64,000 bases of DNA, taken from positions 36,474 to 100,473 of IMG/VR virus record IMGVR_UViG_2851976983_000001; one strand, written 5' to 3'. A model generated the notes under the pieces. The model was not told the DNA's origin, searched no databases, and saw nothing but the letters and a program-made list of their open reading frames with translations. A program made the translations under genes and the position numbers. Positions 1-42,551 of the stretch are shown here, in pieces (position 1 is the stretch's first letter; every line of letters starts with the position of its first letter). The DNA comes from a virus (taxonomy: Duplodnaviria; Heunggongvirae; Uroviricota; Caudoviricetes).

Positions 1-83
1 TTGATGCAGCTATCGCATCTGCGGTCGACAATATTGAATCAGCCGGTATCGGTGCAATTGTTGAATCCGTCGACTCGGCTCTT

Positions 84-410
84 GTGGGCTTAAGCGATAT
101 CGCGGAACTGACAGACCTGTCTCGCCAGGCAGTGGCGTTGCTCAAAGACGGTAAGCGCGGAAGCGGCGACTTCCCTTGCCCTGTACAACGCATAAAAGGC
201 CAGTCTCCTCTCTGGGATTGGGCTGATGTGGCTGAATGGCTCATGAATAACGGACGACTTAAAGAGGGCGATCAAATTGTCCAAAATGCCCGAACTTTGA
301 GTAAATGGAATCTGGCGCTTCGAAACAGCGTCTCGAAAGATTTCAACGAAATAGAGCAAATTGCGGAGAAACTGATTAAACGCCGCAAAGATATTGCGAA
401 ATGCGCATAA
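84..410 (+). CDS. hypothetical protein; frame is open to the window start, so possibly 5'-truncated
   Basis: ORF track 84..410 (alternative start); in-frame codons 3..83 contain no stop; followed by a hairpin terminator. Confidence 0.4.
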   Translation: MGLSDIAELTDLSRQAVALLKDGKRGSGDFPCPVQRIKGQSPLWDWADVAEWLMNNGRLKEGDQIVQNARTLSKWNLALRNSVSKDFNEIEQIAEKLIKRRKDIAKCA

Positions 411-557: not shown

Positions 558-739
558 CATCGTTGGTTTGCAAGACAGACCTTATGTAAGCAGTTTTAGT
601 AAAGCAGTCTCAGTTCAGTGTTATCTTCTGATTTCCCTTCTTCGTGAGTCTCCTCCTTAAGTGCCTAAGTAAGTCCCAATCTATACAGATCAAATTCTCG
701 CCGCACTATGTGGCTCACAAAATTAAGAAGGTAATATCT

Positions 740-955
740 ATGTCTAATAAAATGACTGGTTTAGTAAAATGGTTTAACTCTGATAAAGGCTTTGGCTTTA
801 TTTCTCCTGCTGATGGCAGTAAAGATGTTTTTGTACATTTTTCGGCAATTCAGAGTAATAATTTCCGCACTTTGGAAGAAGGCCAGCAGGTCGAATTCTC
901 TATCGAGAATGGGGCTAAAGGCCCAGCAGCAGCAAATGTCGTTGCTCTAAGCTGA
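740..955 (+). CDS. csp: cold-shock protein, CspA family
   Basis: [23 protein letters not shown]...VFVHFSAIQ with RNP1/RNP2-like motifs; start refined to the internal ATG at 740 within ORF 644..955. Confidence 0.9.
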
Positions 956-1230
956 TTCAACGCTGATGATCCTCATTTCTACAATAACGAAGACGGTGTA
1001 AGCCTGAGTGGATAGATTTGTAGGATTGTACAAGTTGAATAAATTAGCATGGTAAGGCCATGCTAATTAAATCGACACAACGGCCAGTTTATTCCATAAA
1101 AGTGAATTGCCCATTGTGGCGAAATGCGGGGTTGCCGCATGAATAGTCAAAGGCAGAAGCTAACTGCCGGCATGGCAAAACAAAGTGCGTAAGAGGAGTG
1201 ACTTCCTCAACAAGCGCCATAATTCTTTAT

Positions 1231-4200: not shown

Positions 4201-4777
4201 GGACGTTAATCTGGTCGTAGAATGGGGTAGGGTGCGGATAAACCACACTATAGAAGTTGTCTTTTCCACCCGCTGTAATCAGTGTGCTTATGATTTTTGC
4301 AAAATCGTTGCGTTGGAACACGCTACCGATGTCGGAAGTAAGCAGGATGATGTTACCTTTGGCATATGTAGAAACCAACTGTTCGAGCGAGAGACGCGGT
4401 ACAAAGTAGAACTGTTCTCGTGTGTTGGCCGCCGTCATTAGTTCGCAGATGTCGCGATATCCTTTCTCATTTTTAATTAGAGCGGTAAACGAGTAGTTAC
4501 GTCCTCGCTCCAATGATTCCATACATCCCTTAGACTCTTTAGCAAGTTTAGCCCGGTGCTCGTATGTGGGATCATCAACGATGTTTAGTTTCACACCACA
4601 AATAACCGCCATGTCGTCACCAGCGGCACGTTGTAGTGGAATAACGCTCGCAATATTCATGCTATCTGCTGAAATTACAGCGGTGTAGCCAGCTTCTCTG
4701 GCAATCTTCACCGCGTTTTCTGCTTTTAAAGCCGACTCCCCAAGTGAGAAGTCAGTTCGAACCATCAGTGCCTTCAT
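1259..4777 (-). CDS. dnaE: DNA polymerase III alpha subunit (DnaE-type replicative polymerase)
   Basis: 1172 aa; N-terminal PHP domain; core GFCGYFLMVRDLMNHSRETGIPVGPGRGSSAGSLVAWCIGITNVDP typical of Pol III alpha. Confidence 0.9.
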   Translation of the reverse strand: MKALMVRTDFSLGESALKAENAVKIAREAGYTAVISADSMNIASVIPLQRAAGDDMAVICGVKLNIVDDPTYEHRAKLAKESKGCMESLERGRNYSFTALIKNEKGYRDICELMTAANTREQFYFVPRLSLEQLVSTYAKGNIILLTSDIGSVFQRNDFAKIISTLITAGGKDNFYSVVYPHPTPFYDQINVRAMKVASALKIEPVAFYPAYYESIDDADIKDIAHMVTNNIKIDQPHRLRIPHQRDNAINGRRHLLEALKAFSVRMDVPVTAAMASTTQDSIIDACTWRWHELPPALPKMADDEPATLMKLAVAGLRKRLTTKEFGYTPPASENRVYVERLKYEMDTLTRLGFCGYFLMVRDLMNHSRETGIPVGPGRGSSAGSLVAWCIGITNVDPIRHGLLFERFINPERLDLPDADLDFSQARRHEVIEYLNERYGEDYVAGIPNFTYLGAASALRDTARIYGVDAADMAVSKEFKNMEDDSLSLEELREQLASLDKYATKNPEAFKAACKLQSLMRGFGRHAAGMIVAGVPLVERTPVELRGNARCIAFDKRYCEAMGLIKLDVLGLATLDLLDSAKRYIKESTGEDINLDAIPLDDRKVLDGFAAGYTQGVFQLESGPMRKLLKDLGGGIEPMSFKTVVATTALFRPGPIQSGMLDDYVSVAKGFMTPTSLHPVLDELTSETNGVILYQEQTMNATRLLAGFTMAEADGVRSAIGKKNMEKMRSMGEKFVIQAQAGWIDVELENGAIQRIHRAEHFKCEDGTLRTVEEALEHGVKLPMPVVRVTTSHPGLSETKAKEIWTAFEKNGAYQFNKSHSVAYSLISYQSMWLKTHYPAEFFAAALTILGEDKHQGLVKDALTYGIRVLPPDVNVSSNRIEIRTLEDGSQALYAPFSAVKGCSENGCQAIMRAREKVGGKFESVAQFDEAVEKRACNSRVRESLHKVGAFASIEPGSLPATDPERLRDQAELMGNLIIDAVKASRPFEMNPKRSAEINVLMTRMAAEMGLGEELIRPTIGIKPKIMIILDNANGNDARTGYFMENGYDDFKAKLLTVGDLRMGDLYVTGVCKKVKDKEKDYTKDEIGQFTDFMREEINLVRPTYILTCGSRSTALFNNKSKPSDLIGRKEYFPELDATVFYGFNPNILYFRPEEGERLEAILADIAETINK

Positions 4778-15140: not shown

Positions 15141-15164
15141 AAAAAGGGGCCGAAGCCCCTTTGG
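15141..15164. terminator. bidirectional terminator hairpin
   Basis: AAAAAGGGGCCGAAGCCCCTTTGG. Confidence 0.5.
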
Positions 15165-15236: not shown

Positions 15237-15319
15237 CACAGCGCTGAACGGTTTGGCGACATTTGCGGAGTCTTTCCGTTCGGACGGTGGTGGCGAACTC
15301 CAAACCGTTCAGCGCTGTG
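15237..15319. repeat. long perfect inverted repeat (20-bp arms) abutting the tRNA 3' end
   Basis: CACAGCGCTGAACGGTTTGG ... CCAAACCGTTCAGCGCTGTG with ~43-nt loop. Confidence 0.6.
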
Positions 15320-15320
15320 T

Positions 15321-15395
15321 TGGCGATGGTGGGTGGACTCGAACCACCGACCAGTTGATTAACAGTCAACCGCTCTACCACTGAGCTACACCATC
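15321..15395 (-). tRNA. tRNA-Asn (anticodon GUU)
   Basis: Minus-strand sequence GATGGTG-TA-GCTC-AGTGGTA-GAGC-G-GTTGA-CTGTTAA-TCAAC-TGGTC-GGTGG-TTCGAGT-CCACC-CACCATC-G-CCA folds as a cloverleaf with encoded CCA; 75 nt. Confidence 0.85.
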
Positions 15396-15834
15396 ATATT
15401 TCGCGGCGGTACTTGTTGATGGACAACCAGGCAACCAGGAACTTTCCCGCAACTTGCACTTTACGTTAGTGCCAGACGAGGCTTGTGGCGCGCTCACATA
15501 GAGCAAAGATCTGGAATCCTTCTCGGTGGTTGACGGCCGCCAGATTCTTCGATCTTATTGGATGTATGGAATCATCCATGTTGTGAAACCAGGGGCTACA
15601 TAGGCAACAATGATTTCACCAGAGGGTTAAAGAATCCTGCTTTCACAACGTTGAGGCCGCTGAACCGATTTATGTTCGACCCAACATATTGATCAGTCAC
15701 TACAGCTCTGTGGAATCACCTGTATGATTAAAAGAAAAACAGTGACCTCAACGTTGTGCGCTGGCTAACCAAGCCAGCCGGGTTACGTCGCCGCTTTTAA
15801 CCCAAGATTAAACGACATAAGTAATGGAAATGAC

Positions 15835-15949
15835 GTAACAGGATGGACGGTCAGCTGGCTGAAACCGGGATGATGGAATGGAATGAGGAAACCAACCGTC
15901 CATCCTGTTACTTCATCGAATAGGGCATGGGTGGTGCAACATGCCCTAT
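15835..15949. repeat. two consecutive strong hairpins in an ORF-free region
   Basis: 16-bp perfect stem GTAACAGGATGGACGG/CCGTCCATCCTGTTAC (15835..15911) then 10-bp stem ATAGGGCATG/CATGCCCTAT (15920..15949). Confidence 0.5.
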
Positions 15950-16143
15950 CCTGCGTTCTGAAATCACACTCGCTCAGTGTGTCCCATTTCGGTGACGAGG
16001 CTGGAAACTGACCTCGCTGGTGTTTGGCTTCTTAGGCTACTGCCAGGTACGTATCTTCGTTTGCAGTTATATTTAACGTTCAAACAGTCGCATCTCAACG
16101 AAAACAAGTGAATCTTATACGTATTAAATAAGTAAGTAAATGC

Positions 16144-16449: not shown

Positions 16450-16598
16450 TTCCGCACTCCCGTCTCGTGAACAACCCGATACAGACGCTTACCGATGCGA
16501 AGCGTTTTGGTTTCCAGTTCCTGCCTGACCATATCGCGACAGATACTGAAGCCGAGGGCCACGCCCCCAGCAAAAGATAATAGGATGTATGGAATCAT
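16446..16598 (-). CDS. small membrane protein (50 aa) missing from the ORF track
   Basis: Hand translation MIPYILLSFAGGVALGFSICRDMVRQELETKTLRIGKRLYRVVHETGVRK; start and stop overlap both neighbours. Confidence 0.4.
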   Translation of the reverse strand: MIPYILLSFAGGVALGFSICRDMVRQELETKTLRIGKRLYRVVHETGVRK

Positions 16599-16810
16599 CA
16601 GAACGCCCCCGCCTCAGTCAATTGCTGCAACAGTGAGTGTCCTTTTTCAGTGAGTTGATAGTTCTCCACACATCCCTTTGGCGAAACGTTAGCGACAAGA
16701 TTCATACGTTCCAGTTTGGCGCGGGTCTTTGGCTTCCAGTTGGAATAGAACTCTTTCCATTGGCTGATTTCACGCAGAGTTTCCTTCTCCCGTTTACTTA
16801 ACATGATCAT
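16598..16810 (-). CDS. hypothetical protein
   Basis: 70-aa ORF translationally coupled to both neighbours. Confidence 0.5.
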   Translation of the reverse strand: MIMLSKREKETLREISQWKEFYSNWKPKTRAKLERMNLVANVSPKGCVENYQLTEKGHSLLQQLTEAGAF

Positions 16811-19850: not shown

Positions 19851-20903
19851 ATGACAACGTTGTCCAAAAACGTGATGCAACACAGGAAGGTATTGAAAGA
19901 AACTGGTTTGGCGTTTGCCAAATCTATACCGCTTGTTGGACCTCATATTGAGGCAGCGGAAAAAATGTTCACGTTGTTCTCAGAGATAAATGCGACGACT
20001 TGTCGTGATCGATTCAACCGTTACATTATGGGCATTGGTGAAATTTGCGACGATGAGGTCGATATCTCAAGAGAACACTTTTCGGCGTTAGTCAAAAAGC
20101 TCGTGCTTGATGATGAAGACAAGAAAACAGAATACTACATTCGCTTGACGGTAAGCCTAGCCCGCAGCAGCCTTAACGACGATGAAAAACTATTTTTTAT
20201 CCACATACTGAGTGGGTTAACCTGCTTTGATATTGAATATGCGCGCAAACTTTACATCACAACAAGCTCGCCAATAAAAGGCTATAAATCAACTGTATTA
20301 GCCCAAGTTAGCCTCACATCACAAAAAAGTGGAATGGCTCTGAGATCGCTAAATAAGCTCATAACCTCGGGTCTCGTCTACGAAGACAGGGCTGGCGAGA
20401 TCCAAGCGAACCCCATGTTCAAATTAACAGATGAACTTGAGCGTCTTTTAGGATTTATTTTTCACAAGGATGATTTGGAGCCTGAAGCTTTATCTATTGA
20501 GCCAAAGGAAGAATACGACGTCATTATCATTGAAAGCAGCGAAATCTATAGTGGGGCATATCCAAACAGCATTTATCGTAGTTTGAAAGCCGCCGGCATT
20601 AAGGTTTGCATAGAAAAAAATGAAGACTGCATTACAACCAAGCTGGCAAAGTACTTCATCTCAGTCAAAACAGGGAGCGGACTCAATGGTGAAGGTGAGT
20701 GGATTGAATTTGGGCAAATTTACGTCCTCAAACGCCTAGATTCAAGCAGTAAACGTTTCTATGAAAATGAGCACAGTGAGACAGTCAGTATCAGCAATTT
20801 TAAACCTAAGGATAACGACCAAACATATGATGCAAGTTTGCTAAATATAGCACTAAATAATATCGCTGCGTTTGTCCTGAACCGTCTGTCTCCCACAACT
20901 TAA
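19851..20903 (+). CDS. hypothetical protein; orphan plus-strand AT-rich gene
   Basis: 350-aa ORF opposite to the surrounding minus-strand replication genes; no motif I recognise. Confidence 0.6.
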   Translation: MTTLSKNVMQHRKVLKETGLAFAKSIPLVGPHIEAAEKMFTLFSEINATTCRDRFNRYIMGIGEICDDEVDISREHFSALVKKLVLDDEDKKTEYYIRLTVSLARSSLNDDEKLFFIHILSGLTCFDIEYARKLYITTSSPIKGYKSTVLAQVSLTSQKSGMALRSLNKLITSGLVYEDRAGEIQANPMFKLTDELERLLGFIFHKDDLEPEALSIEPKEEYDVIIIESSEIYSGAYPNSIYRSLKAAGIKVCIEKNEDCITTKLAKYFISVKTGSGLNGEGEWIEFGQIYVLKRLDSSSKRFYENEHSETVSISNFKPKDNDQTYDASLLNIALNNIAAFVLNRLSPTT

Positions 20904-36155: not shown

Positions 36156-39100
36156 ATTAAGTATGTACCTACTTATTTTTACCTATATAAATATTTTTTT
36201 CTACATTACAGAAGGCCAATTCTTACTCGTAGGACGTTGTTATCGTCATAAACGTCAATCCGCTGACCATTTATGACCAGTCGCCCATTACCCCCGCTAT
36301 TACCGTTGATCTCAAGCGTTCCATTTTTGCCGAACCGCCATCCAGATCTACCGCTAACAAAATTGGTAGATTGCAGATCGCCTACTTTTGCATTGGTGAT
36401 TGTGCCATCCTTGATATACGCACCATTCATATAGGCGATACTGTTTTCGATAACAAATGGCGTGGTGATCTTCCCGTTAACAGAGTTGACCAAACCAAAC
36501 CTGTCAGCCTGCACCAAAAACTGAGAAAGGCCAGTGGTGTCGATACCAAGCGCAATACCAGCAACATACTTCTGCCCTCCGCTCGTTGAAGTCTCCATTT
36601 TCAACGTCCACGCGGTTGACACTTTTTTGTTGGTATCAGCAATAGCTGTTGCCTGCTGTTGAATTGTCGCGGTATTTCCATCCACCTCTGCTTTCAGAGT
36701 GTCGATTCGCCCACTTAGAGCATTATCTGCCTGCGTTCTCGCTGTCGTTTCAGTTGTGACCGCCGCAGAAATGTTGGCTGCTGTTTGAGACTCTAAGTTT
36801 GTGATTTGAGTCGCCAATGCCGCATCTTGCTCTGTACGCGTTTTCGTTTCGGTTGCTACAGCCGCTTTAATATCCTCTTTGTATTGAGAGGTCAGCTTGG
36901 TGATCTGAGACGACAACGCCGAGTCAGCATCAGTTCGAGCCTGCGTTTCAACTGCAACGGCCGCACTAATATCTTTCGCTGTCTGTGCTTTTAAACTTGA
37001 AACCTCTTTTGTTAAAGCGGTATCACCATCAGCACGAGCCGTTGTTTCTCTGGCAAGAGATGCCTCGAGATCATTAGCTTTTGCTGTAAGAGACGAAATC
37101 TGAGTGGACAATGCACTATCGGCATCAGTCCTTGCCTTTGTCTCTACAGCAACCGCTGCGGCAATATCAGTTCCGGTTTGTGCTCGCAGGCTGTTAATTT
37201 CTCGTGAGAGCGCCTGGTCAGCACTTGCTCTGGTCTCCTGCTCCTGAGTGATGGCAGCGGATATATCACCGTCAACCTTTGACTGAAGCTGGTTTATTTG
37301 TTTGGCTAACGCAGAGTCCCCGCTTGCTCGGGCCTCCTGCTCACTACGTATTGCAGCAGAAATATCATCATCAACCTTTGCCTGAAGTTGGGTGATCTGG
37401 CTTGCCAGAGCCGAATCTTCCGTTGCTCGGGCTTCTTGCTCTTCCTTAATAGCTGCGACGATATCGTTGCTTACTTTCGACTCAAGCTGAGTGATCTGTG
37501 TCGTCAGAGCTTCATCGGCAGATGTGCGAGCCTCCTGCTCTGTACTAATCGCCGCGCTGATATCTCCTTCAAACTTAGATTGCAGCTGAGTGACACGCTT
37601 TGCCAACGCTTCATCGCCATCGGCACGAGCGGTGGACTCTTCCAGAATACTGGCCTTAATGTCTTCGCCAATTTCTACGCGAATTTCCTCAACCTTCGTG
37701 GCCATTGCAGACATATCATCAGCAAAGGTTTTCTGTGTTGTTGCGATCTTCGCGTTATTGACCATCTGCTTGTGCTGGTCTTCATCTTGACGAAGAGCCA
37801 GGTCAATATTTGTTTTGGCTAACGCCTCAATGTTCGTAGTCAGTTCTGCACTGGCACGATCGACCTCTGCAACCGTCTTTTTCATTTCTTCAACGGCAGC
37901 GGAGCTTTCCTCTACCGTTGACTGCAACACTTCCAGTTGTTTAGCGTTTGCAGCATCGCCTTCAACACGAGCCTCGCTTTCCTTAGCAATAAGAGCCGCC
38001 GCTTCATCTCTTGCAGCCTTTATTGCCTCGACTGTATTAGCGAGAGCTTTATCGTGTTCAGATACGGTGTTTTCGATTTCAACAATTGCAGCATCAGTAG
38101 CATCAATTTTTTCAAACGCTTCATTGACCTTGTCGATCGTTGCCGAAACCTCACCTTTAAGCTCGGTTTGTGCGTTCTCCAAAGCATCGCTACGCTCGTT
38201 GAATTTTATTTCAAAACCCGCGAGGTTATCGCTGAACTGCTTATCTAATTCAGCTATATCTTCCTTAACGTCGTTTACCGACCCCTCCAAAGATTCGACG
38301 CTCTGGTTGATATGCTCATTTAACTCGTCAACTGCTTCTTGAGAGGCTTTGCTGTTGATGTCCTCAAGCAGAGCCTGACCAAGCTCGGAAGATGTAATTT
38401 TGCCAGCCAGGAACGACAGTACATCGCGAGTTGTCGCCTCTGTACCCAAGTTTGAGTTCGGAGGGCTTAACATACCTCGCTTGTTCGATGCTCGAACCCA
38501 GTAATACCACGTTTCGCTATCCCCAAGACCAGCATGTGTAAAGGTGGTGCTTGCAGACTCTGCGATCAGTTTCGCCGTATCCAGATTGTTGGTCTGGGAT
38601 GCGTAAACATTAATGTGATCAAGGTCTACCGAATCTGGATTAACCCAATTCAGTATCACATTACGATAGTCTCCAACGGCCGTTAATGACGTTGGGGCAT
38701 CCGGCGGTGTCATTGTGCCCAACACCTGATAAACGGTACTGATAATCTCTGTTTTTTTACCGTTGAATGAAACCGCATACAGTTGGAAGTCGTAGTGTCC
38801 ATTCTCCGCGACATTAACGATTTCGTATTGCTCTTCGGTTACACGCGCCGATTGCCAGTTCGATACATTGTTTTCATCAGAACGTCGCCAACTGATCCAA
38901 TACTCTGGAGATTTTCCTTCCCATGTTGCAGTCAGTTTTACTGACAGGTTGCCCGGGCTTGAGAGATAAGTCCCTTCAGTGATTTGCAGATTAGATGGCT
39001 TGGAGTAAGTTGGGTCCAATACCGTCGTATTCTGCGGGATCAGCGTTGCGCCATTGTCGATTGCCTCATATTTAGACGGATTGTTCTCAACAGCGGTGAT

Positions 39101-41199: not shown

Positions 41200-41522
41200 A
41201 TGACTAAAAATACTCGTTTTTCCCCCGAAGTCCGTCAACGGGCAGTCCGTATGGTTCTGGAAAGTCAGGATGAATATGACTCACAGTGGGCGGCAATTTG
41301 TTCCATTGCCCCAAAGATTGGCTGTACGCCGGAGACTCTGCGTGTCTGGGTTCGCCAGCATGAGCGGGATACCGGGGGCGGTGATGGTGGGCTCACCAGC
41401 GCTGAACGTCAGCGTCTGAAAGAGCTGGAACGTGAAAATCGTGAACTGCGCCGCAGTAACGATATCCTTCGCCAGGCTTCCGCTTATTTTGCGAAGGCGG
41501 AGTTCGACCGCCTCTGGAAGAA

Positions 41523-41526
<4 letters not shown>
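41200..41526 (+). CDS. IS3-family transposase OrfA
   Basis: [57 protein letters not shown] (HTH + leucine zipper). Confidence 0.9.

Positions 41527-42551
<1,025 letters not shown>

Follow-up and report, generated by a model that had tools for sequence, protein, structure and literature searches.

A conserved ssrA-like RNA with a 5' segment antisense to host ssrA in SSU5-type phage-plasmids and other enterobacterial phages

What is encoded in 748 nucleotides that separate a tRNA gene from a small membrane-protein gene, and that no record, be it of a plasmid, a phage or a complete E. coli genome, annotates? The gap in question is 15396..16143 of a viral stretch of 64,000 nucleotides (IMG/VR record IMGVR_UViG_2851976983_000001, positions 36,474 to 100,473), here called the window. 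The gap is 100% identical to E. coli plasmid p503829_100 (NZ_CP025870.1; the window coordinate is the plasmid coordinate minus 8192), 97% to Salmonella phage SSU5 and 97.7% to S. Typhi pHCM2: the replicon is a phage-plasmid of the SSU5/pHCM2/pMT1 type, of about 100 kb. A preliminary description of the window had noticed hairpins and repeats in the gap, and proposed a replication origin, a packaging site or one or more structured RNAs. The last option is the right one. Comparison of homologues shows a conserved, structured RNA gene on the minus strand, homologous to the template and pseudoknots of transfer-messenger RNA (tmRNA, the product of ssrA), and carrying at its 5' end an antisense copy of part of host ssrA; the tag frame and the antisense copy had both been missed. 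Bacteria rely mainly on trans-translation, by tmRNA and SmpB, to rescue ribosomes and tag proteins, and this system is a drug target.

A hidden protein gene can be set aside. As had been described, no open reading frame (ORF) of the gap is credible: the longest have 37-47 amino acids, and the frame that is conserved is instead a tag frame of ten codons. The ORF of 47 amino acids (minus strand, 15964..16107) does stop close to where the conserved block stops, but its start codon is TTG and it is not the conserved frame.

We aligned 51 distinct copies, fetched via the neighbouring protein. Positions 15940..16140 of the window are near-invariant in these copies, although from clade to clade the neighbouring protein keeps only about 76% identity. 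Conservation peaks at 15950..16140 and not in the hairpins, which have conserved stems and variable loops with insertions and deletions. Beyond the SSU5 lineage, a BLAST search of phage genomes with the conserved core finds a homologue in unannotated DNA of 494 phage records, most of them from unrelated lineages; about 360-480 records that are not SSU5-like hold a homologous stretch of 65-113 nucleotides, nearly always unannotated. Among the carriers are Klebsiella T1-like siphoviruses, Vi1-like Ackermannviridae, FelixO1-like phages and the P22-like phage HK620. In HK620 the copy sits between pR'/qut and the late terminator, with no tRNA after it; FelixO1-like copies lie within a tRNA cluster; T1-like copies occupy a tail-gene gap and are followed by two tRNAs. 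A homologue is carried, too, by 770-797 plasmids, with Klebsiella, Escherichia, Enterobacter, Yersinia and Salmonella among their hosts, and by 255 of the 5426 complete E. coli genomes. Species-representative genomes yield only three matches (Buttiauxella, Kluyvera and Pseudocitrobacter), and the element is thus confined to mobile elements of the Enterobacteriaceae.

A covariance model, R1, built from 24 non-SSU5 phage copies only, has a single match in the 64-kb window: 15945..16078 on the minus strand, over the full length of the model, with 77.3 bits and E = 1.8e-16. In these 24 copies, 94.3% of the cells pair, versus 30-40% with partners slid, and 10 pairs (47 cells) are changed on both sides; the covariation score is 0.229, versus 0.106 in shuffles, and 0 of 500 shuffles score as high, a count that is not a probability because the sequences are related by descent. 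In 25 SSU5-like copies the corresponding values are 96.8% versus 34-46%, with 12 pairs (68 cells) changed on both sides, six of them in hairpin I13. The block that runs from the tag to pseudoknot PK-B is invariant within the SSU5 family, and variation there tests the other elements: I13, I1, PK-C, H6, I4 and I5 (Table 1). As judged from these alignments, the structural argument is carried by the control with slid partners and by the independent model match. Folding energy points the same way: the minus-strand RNA of 15740-16108 folds at -131.4 kcal/mol, with z = -5.09 against shuffles, and the plus strand has z = -2.94.

The compensatory changes are found in both stems of two H-type pseudoknots that, as in tmRNA, lie downstream of the tag. 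Stem 1 of PK-A appears across phages as TGAGG/CCTCA, CAAGG/CCTTG and CAGGG/CCCTG, and its stem 2 as CCGA/TCGG, CCAA/TTGG, CCAG/CTGG. Stem 1 of PK-B covaries as CGCAC/GTGTG, CGTAC/GTATG, CGCAT/ATGTG and CGCAG/CTGTG; its stem 2 has 4-8 base pairs in other phages, where it also covaries. A third pseudoknot, PK-C, is plausible: stem 1 pairs in 100% of cells, with three invariant U.G pairs, and stem 2 in 82%, with an alignment shift in one clade; with little covariation, its reality is moderately supported by these sequences.

The hairpins that drew attention to the gap are also real, and are kept with compensatory changes in 25 diverged relatives. The perfect 16-bp stem lies inside a larger hairpin, I1, with arms of 22 nucleotides (15830-15851 and 15895-15916, 95% complementary) and a loop of 43; the 10-bp hairpin is perfect (15920-15929 and 15940-15949) and forms the greater part of I13, in which 98.5% of the cells are paired around a variable loop with insertions and deletions. 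Read from the other strand, several of the conserved G.U pairs would turn into A.C mismatches; the molecule is thus an RNA read from the minus strand, in line with the tRNA-Asn gene. Pair 215-271 of I1, for example, alternates between G.U, G-C and A-U, legal only on minus-strand RNA.

These pairs bear directly on the two other proposals, which would make of the gap a DNA-level element, either a lytic replication origin or a packaging site. Inverted repeats, the absence of genes and the proximity of replication genes (ligase, primase, helicase) would fit such an element. However, the conserved G.U pairs call for RNA rather than a cruciform, the homologous core recurs elsewhere in unrelated contexts (late leader, tail-gene gap, tRNA clusters), and the signs of an origin fail to appear: cumulative GC skew is monotonic across the locus, no direct-repeat family of the iteron kind is found in the region, and the only two DnaA boxes of the window are at 20197 and 27988. 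The plasmid initiator RepB is sited elsewhere on the replicon. No sign of a packaging site was seen either, though no search aimed at one was made; such sites usually lie in or beside the small terminase gene, and the terminase gene is about 44 kb away. We give this explanation almost no credence.

What, then, is the conserved frame? In the window it reads GCA AAC GAA GAT ACG TAC CTG GCA GTA GCC TAA, or ANEDTYLAVA followed by a stop; its counterpart in E. coli ssrA is AAUAGUC GCA AAC GAC GAA AAC UAC GCU UUA GCA GCU UAA, or ANDENYALAA. As in tmRNA, it opens on a resume codon, GCA, with neither a start codon nor a Shine-Dalgarno sequence, and closes on a stop codon. The 134 collected copies comprise 24 DNA versions, all of 10 codons and none with an internal stop. 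In codons 1-6, which were not forced by the search pattern, the third position varies in every codon; apart from codon 5, which is free, first and second positions vary only between G and A in codon 4 (D/E to N), and between A and T in codon 6 (Y to F). One lineage has GCT AAT instead of GCA AAC, and still encodes A-N. Read in the +1 frame, the same variants produce radical changes: the pattern of third-position and conservative changes exists only in frame 0. All 9 variants of the sequence ahead of the resume codon have A at position -4, and at -5 they have U or C but never A; in E. coli tmRNA, A86 is the key determinant of the frame, U85C and U85G are tolerated, and U85A is harmful (PMC2481249). 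Two tools concur, since ARAGORN at the 80% threshold recognises the resume consensus and the tag, and the Rfam tmRNA model aligns the linker and resume region of a FelixO1-like homologue. On the evidence of these codons, the variation of the tag is the signature of a template for trans-translation, not of an ordinary gene or a neutral spacer.

The segment that precedes the linker has a different relation to ssrA. Two of its motifs are invariant across phage lineages: GUUUUCG, which exactly complements the CGAAAAC of gaC GAA AAC, tag codons of E. coli, and GCGAC, which complements the GUCGC that straddles the host resume codon. Compared with the reverse complement of E. coli K-12 ssrA, the segment is identical at 32/33 positions in lambdoid phages (ssrA nucleotides 68-105), 29/30 in T1-like phages (68-106), 23/25 in FelixO1-like phages (81-106), 27/32 in Vi01 (68-104) and 19/23 in the window (82-104). 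Pairing in cis with the element's own tag was considered, and the tag rejected as the main partner of the segment: complementarity to the own tag region is 6-9 nucleotides in most lineages, at most 17/22 in two of them, and 6 in the window. GUUUUCG and GCGAC stay constant although codons 3-5 of the own tag change, and host tmRNA is thus the best candidate for their unvarying partner.

The first 26 nucleotides of the window element form 10 + 11 base pairs with ssrA 81-105, at -27.8 kcal/mol (RNAduplex); shuffles have a mean of -19.1 (standard deviation 2.4), with 0 of 200 as good. The lambdoid and T1-like duplexes likewise beat 200 of 200 shuffles, and even when the cost of unfolding is counted, dimer folding retains an advantage of -5 to -14 kcal/mol. 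The segment is complementary to the linker and template of host tmRNA, which are single-stranded; of 112 enterobacterial ssrA genes taken from metagenomes, 106 keep the target sequence, TAGTCGCAAACGACGAAAACTA, without change. The extended complementarity of a trans-acting antisense RNA is thus present at the level of sequence. The anti-ssrA oligonucleotide of ribosome display presumably covers the same region of tmRNA.

Is the element itself a tmRNA? The defining part of such a molecule is a tRNA-like domain with an acceptor stem of 7 base pairs, a G3.U70 pair, a T-arm and a 3' CCA, and none was found. ARAGORN with default settings reports no tmRNA in the window or in the other phage loci; at the 80% threshold it calls the tag, but proposes tRNA domains that fall inside the upstream protein gene. 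In the window and the fetched loci there is no consistent T-arm accompanied by a strand pairing with the invariant GUUUUCG, nor any other consistent cis partner for this heptamer. Hairpin H6 stands at the position of the T-arm of tmRNA, but its loop, UUGGUUA, is not a T-loop when compared by eye with the consensus. As for an acceptor piece elsewhere on NZ_CP025870.1, ARAGORN finds only tRNA-Asn on the whole replicon, and a permissive Rfam scan of plasmid positions 50001-100000 has no tRNA-like or tmRNA-like match. Two-piece tmRNAs have their acceptor piece upstream in the same gene; here, the membrane-protein gene lies upstream. The place of PK1 is taken by 24-44 nucleotides of antisense host ssrA, followed by a hairpin or the linker, and in the FelixO1-like homologue the Rfam tmRNA model aligns only a hairpin at this position. 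The Rfam scan that had been suggested for the gap finds only the tRNA at gathering thresholds, and hence no known family; run permissively, it returns microRNA-like hairpin noise and a beta_tmRNA match of 14.8 bits, where gathering scores are 47-84 bits. The best scores of homologues, 16 bits for tmRNA and 29.2 bits for tmRNA_permuted, are also below threshold. A complete tmRNA is therefore rejected, with no consistent T-arm and acceptor and only implausible relaxed calls by ARAGORN, and with no tRNA-like domain found we do not file the element as a tmRNA.

The resemblance to bacterial tmRNA (RF00023), especially that of enterobacteria, is nevertheless extensive in the other half of the molecule. 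The two share the GCA resume codon without a start codon, the stop codon enclosed in a helix, a tag of 10 codons A-N-[DE]-x-x-[YF]-…-A with the length and register of ANDENYALAA, an A-rich linker with A at -4 and U at -5, pseudoknots after the template, and an overall length of about 350 nucleotides. They differ in that the element has no detected acceptor stem, T-arm, 3' CCA or G3.U70, has an antisense segment in place of PK1, ends its tag in LAVA and not ALAA, scores 14.8-29 bits in Rfam, under all gathering thresholds, and is missed by ARAGORN at default settings. By these sequence comparisons the element would work like tmRNA and descends from it, and it also has the features of a trans-acting antisense RNA.

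It is natural to ask whether a tRNA-like domain might be too diverged for detection, or supplied by a neighbouring RNA, which would make of the element a self-sufficient tmRNA in one or two pieces. The donors could be the tRNA-Asn precursor here, and modules resembling a tRNA-like domain, or D-armless ones, in other phages. The tmRNA-like tag and pseudoknots, the call by ARAGORN at 80%, the sub-threshold permuted-tmRNA matches of 26-29 bits, the tRNA-like gene with G3.U70, A73 and CCA after FelixO1-like copies, and the module adjoining lambdoid copies would all agree with it. Yet the SSU5 lineage has no acceptor partner for GUUUUCG, its only T-loop is that of tRNA-Asn, no other tRNA or tmRNA is found by ARAGORN on the 100-kb replicon, the tRNA domains of the relaxed calls overlap a protein gene that contains them, each neighbouring tRNA-like module already closes its own acceptor stem, and the 5' domain is better explained as an antisense copy of host ssrA. 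We regard a self-sufficient tmRNA as improbable.

The modules in question deserve a description of their own. In the FelixO1-like phage AYO145A (L072, 2667-2745), an unannotated D-armless tRNA-like gene follows immediately after the ssrA-like RNA; it has G3.U70, A73, an encoded CCA and the anticodon loop CUUCUAA, scores 31.7 bits with the Rfam tRNA model, and is missed by ARAGORN. In lambdoid and T1-like phages (L069, L071, L076, L088, L115, L168 and others), the ssrA-like RNA lies within "RNA islands" of repeated adapter hairpins of the form N6-GG-U-AAGAGCAUU[variable tip]AGUGCUCUU-U-CC-N6'. The islands also contain cloverleaf-like domains GUUGUGGUG…GCCGGAGAUCAGCACCGGC-CACCACAAC with a hypervariable central arm, one of which, in HK620, ends in …CACCACA-G-CCA; no tool annotates these hairpins and domains. 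In lambdoid L088 and L076, the tip of an adapter hairpin beside the ssrA-like RNA is a mini tRNA-like domain (GGGCGACG… and a true T-arm GGUAGAGGGUUCGAAUCCCUAC), which has a G.U at the third pair if its 5' end is the preceding A, and resembles the tmRNA of DS6A type, reduced to its tRNA-like domain.

What could a template and an antisense copy do together? The explanation that we rank highest, and hold tentatively, is that this ssrA-derived RNA of about 350 nucleotides would pair with host tmRNA, mask the host's tag template and present its own. Processing at the long hairpins and at the tRNA would probably free the RNA from the tRNA-Asn precursor. Its 5' 24 nucleotides would pair with nucleotides 82-105 of host tmRNA, thereby hiding the first codons of the host tag, the resume codon included. 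The linker and resume codon of the phage RNA would then emerge 17 nucleotides past the duplex, at the end nearest to host PK1, P2 and tRNA-like domain. The native template begins 11 nucleotides after PK1, which is about where the phage resume codon would emerge, and a rescued ribosome would thus be expected to resume on the phage template. The outcome would be a hybrid "two-piece" tmRNA, with an alanine-charged tRNA-like domain and SmpB provided by the host and a template provided by the phage, and the products of stalled ribosomes would be tagged with (A)ANEDTYLAVA in place of (A)ANDENYALAA. That the swap goes this far, to an inter-genomic two-piece tmRNA that replaces AANDENYALAA by AAN[DE]xx[YF]LAVA, seems to us possible but doubtful.

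Several points weigh against this explanation. To our knowledge, no natural tmRNA accepts a template in trans; template substitution is something that we infer purely, and the host's own template, being covalently attached, would compete. The tRNA-like modules that adjoin the element in other lineages are possibly its true partners there. The FelixO1-like and Vi01 elements have weak duplex energies, about z = -2, which taken by themselves are not significant; the phage lineages have a common ancestry, and hence their agreement on the target site is not independent evidence; host tmRNA was sampled to a limited extent, as E. coli K-12 ssrA and metagenomic ssrA genes. The LAVA end of the tag was forced by the search, since the pattern used to collect the copies fixed these codons. 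Stem 2 of PK-B is weak in the SSU5 lineage, including the window, with only 3 base pairs. The putative promoter, read by eye, agrees with the consensus at 8 of 12 positions, below the threshold of the scanner, and the lists of small RNAs surveyed on Y. pestis pMT1 have no RNA at this locus.

A simpler proposal keeps the pairing and drops the template: the element would be a pure antisense inhibitor or decoy, which pairs with host tmRNA and shuts down trans-translation or tagging, its own tag remaining untranslated and its tmRNA-like body perhaps titrating SmpB, S1 or RNase R. The same complementarity serves it, and no unprecedented step is required. Synthetic antisense oligonucleotides to tmRNA suppress trans-translation in vitro (PMC3384345), and phage DS6A illustrates that a phage can keep a partial tmRNA, consisting of the tRNA-like domain only, a similar molecule being inhibitory to host tmRNA (PMC4131195). 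But a short antisense RNA would be enough for inhibition, and the proposal leaves unexplained a tag that varies with codon periodicity and conserves its amino acids, its constant 10 codons without stops, and the invariant A at -4. A mere inhibitor thus strikes us as rather unlikely. The anti-small RNAs of phages and prophages and the synthetic anti-ssrA oligonucleotides do share with the element a 5'-terminal seed complementary to a regulatory or housekeeping RNA of the host. The anti-small RNAs that we know of only sequester or destabilise their target, and none carries a replacement functional module, such as the tag template here.

A last possibility is that the element is a relic, a captured ssrA that degenerates and serves now only as a leader, spacer or processing scaffold for tRNA-Asn. 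It is on the strand of the tRNA, upstream of it and ahead of the same minus-strand terminator; its long hairpins resemble RNase III sites, and some modules are dispensable, such as I4, deleted in one relative (L170). Against decay stand the block from the tag to PK-B, which is more conserved than the tRNA and the flanking genes, the retention of the element in phages without a following tRNA, for instance HK620, and a pattern of variation that shows selection. We consider a relic very improbable. Two SSU5-like copies are natural variants that could reveal which parts are dispensable: L170, which lost I4 by a deletion between two copies of CAACGTTG, and L008, which has an insertion of about 260 nucleotides within PK-B.

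The closest known systems differ from the proposed hybrid. Two-piece tmRNAs (of alpha- and beta-proteobacteria and cyanobacteria; RF01849-51, RF04321) also consist of two base-paired chains, one of them with the template, and their models are the closest Rfam matches of the element, though weak ones. However, both of their pieces come from one gene of one organism and pair through the acceptor stem and P2, whereas the partner proposed here is an intact host tmRNA, paired at its template region. Phage-encoded derivatives of ssrA are known from mycobacteriophages such as Bxz1, from Bacillus phage G and from DS6A (PMC4131195): these are complete tmRNAs or the tRNA-like half alone, while the element is the complementary half plus an antisense domain. 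Beyond mycobacteriophages, Bacillus phage G and DS6A, the published exhaustive surveys of ssrA in phages and plasmids, based on ARAGORN and Rfam, list no carrier, and we found no description of an ssrA-like or anti-tmRNA RNA of enterobacterial phages in the searchable literature or the papers of tmRNA databases.

On the soberest reading, the gap holds an unannotated, highly conserved RNA gene present in clinical plasmids by the hundred, Yersinia pestis pMT1 and Salmonella Typhi pHCM2 among them, and exposes a blind spot of tmRNA gene finders; the family spans phage-plasmids of the SSU5/pHCM2/pMT1 type and FelixO1-, Vi1-, T1- and P22-like phages, many of them candidates for therapy. Were the proposed explanation true, the template half of tmRNA joined to an antisense copy of the host gene would be a new viral takeover of host quality control, silencing or changing the tag. 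It would mean that tmRNA can use a template supplied in trans, it would explain old observations of phages that depend on host ssrA, and it would offer a natural tool to reprogram degradation tags; template substitution would be a categorically new mechanism.

We now turn to the setting of the element. The neighbouring genes are all on the minus strand, in the order DNA ligase gene, small ORFs, membrane-protein gene, gap, tRNA-Asn, hairpin I2 and terminator; these last two extend the structured region beyond the tRNA and were absent from the preliminary description. We take the region to be a minus-strand noncoding RNA operon composed of a putative promoter, the ssrA-like RNA, the long hairpins, tRNA-Asn and the terminator (Table 1).

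Table 1. Features of the gap and its surroundings, in window coordinates
Feature	Position	Strand	Remarks
Membrane-protein gene, 101 amino acids	16144..16449	-	Conserved; immediately upstream of the ssrA-like element
Putative sigma-70 promoter	16112..16140	-	TTTACT (16140..16135), 17-nucleotide spacer, TAAGAT (16117..16112); read by eye
5' "anti-ssrA" domain GUUUUCGUUGAGAUGCGACUGUUU	16082..16105	-	Antisense to host tmRNA nucleotides 82-104/105 (linker, resume codon, codons 1-5)
Linker upstream of resume codon (…AAAUAUAACU)	16065..16081	-	A at -4, U at -5, as tmRNA A86/U85
Core shared with unrelated phages (linker, tag, helix 5, PK-A, PK-B)	15945..16078	-	Model R1
Tag frame without start codon	16032..16064	-	
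Helix 5 analogue CUGG/CCAG	16017..16046	-	Encloses stop codon; invariant, paired in 100% of copies; inner stem covaries in other phages
Pseudoknot PK-A	15982..16016	-	Stem 1 CGAGG/CCUCG, stem 2 UUCCA/UGGGA
Pseudoknot PK-B	15953..15981	-	Stem 1 CACACU/AGUGUG, stem 2 GCG/CGC
Hairpin I13	15918..15951	-	10-bp hairpin extended to 12 bp; 6/12 pairs changed on both sides in 25 SSU5-like copies
Long hairpin I1	15830..15916	-	22-bp stem, variable 43-nucleotide tip; 96.9% of cells paired
Pseudoknot PK-C	15780..15818	-	AUGUCGUU/GGCGACGU and GGGUU/AACCC
Hairpin H6	15760..15778	-	GCUGGC-UUGGUUA-GCCAGC; 100% paired, one compensatory G-C to A-U change
Long hairpin I4	15644..15758	-	19-bp stem, 77-nucleotide variable tip; 99.1% paired, 3 pairs changed on both sides
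Hairpin I5	15575..15654	-	5' arm overlaps 3' arm of I4; core 80% paired in relatives; weaker than other helices
Less conserved spacer	15396..15576	-	About 75% column identity; holds conserved 17-mer AUGAUUCCAUACAUC (15557..15576)
tRNA-Asn (GUU)	15321..15395	-	CCA encoded; ARAGORN; Rfam 76.2 bits
Hairpin I2	15237..15319	-	20-bp perfect stem, 43-nucleotide loop; directly 3' of tRNA-Asn
Intrinsic terminator	15143..15162	-	GGGGC-UUCG-GCCCC, then U-run; ends the operon

Transcription would start from the weak, putative sigma-70-like promoter, a sequence that SSU5-like relatives retain. With the same spacing to GUUUUCG, the T1-like and FelixO1-like copies have what would be stronger promoters, TTGACA-17-TAGATT or TATAGT. 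The ssrA-like RNA appears to share a transcript with tRNA-Asn, and I1, as well as the other hairpins of 19-22 base pairs, may be processing sites of the RNase III type. A paper on RNA-seq of S. Typhi strain Ty2 makes no mention of the locus.

The architecture of hairpin I2 is the same as that of I1; only its downstream half is common to SSU5. In a Klebsiella clade of SSU5-like elements (L030, 4070-4616), genes for tRNA-Tyr, tRNA-Thr and tRNA-Ser stand after tRNA-Asn, ahead of the conserved half of the hairpin and the terminator.

Both repeats that had been reported in the gap hold up. The 12 letters of ATAAGTAAGTAA are found at 16128..16139 and have 7 copies in the window with at most one mismatch, versus 0.14 expected. 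Their reverse complement, TTACTTACTTAT, overlaps the -35 region of the promoter; its occurrences, at 1259, 16128, 18810, 24313, 46349, 58337 and 59852, are apparently intergenic, as seen by eye, and it may be a phage-specific promoter or operator element. The 17-mer GGATGTATGGAATCATC has 3 copies in the window, versus 0.00 expected: 15560..15576, 16583..16599 and, with 1 mismatch, 4512..4528. Taken as a repeat of 17-20 nucleotides (15557-15576, 16580-16599, 4512-4528), it forms the start of small ORFs (MIPYI…), for example that at 16598. Two direct copies flank a unit of 1023 bp that comprises two small ORFs and the ssrA-like RNA, which suggests a cassette gained or lost by recombination.

Elsewhere on the replicon, a full-length 5' untranslated region thermoregulator of the cspA type lies ahead of the phage-plasmid's cspG cold-shock gene, on the plus strand at 562..980 of the window (Rfam 185.7 bits). 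The tail genes of NZ_CP025870.1 are interrupted by the insertion sequences IS2 and IS100, the latter in two copies, and by an IS3-family element with an ALIL pseudoknot (window 41481..41597), so this copy of the phage-plasmid is probably defective. The same plasmid also encodes metG, the Met-tRNA ligase, and apbC.

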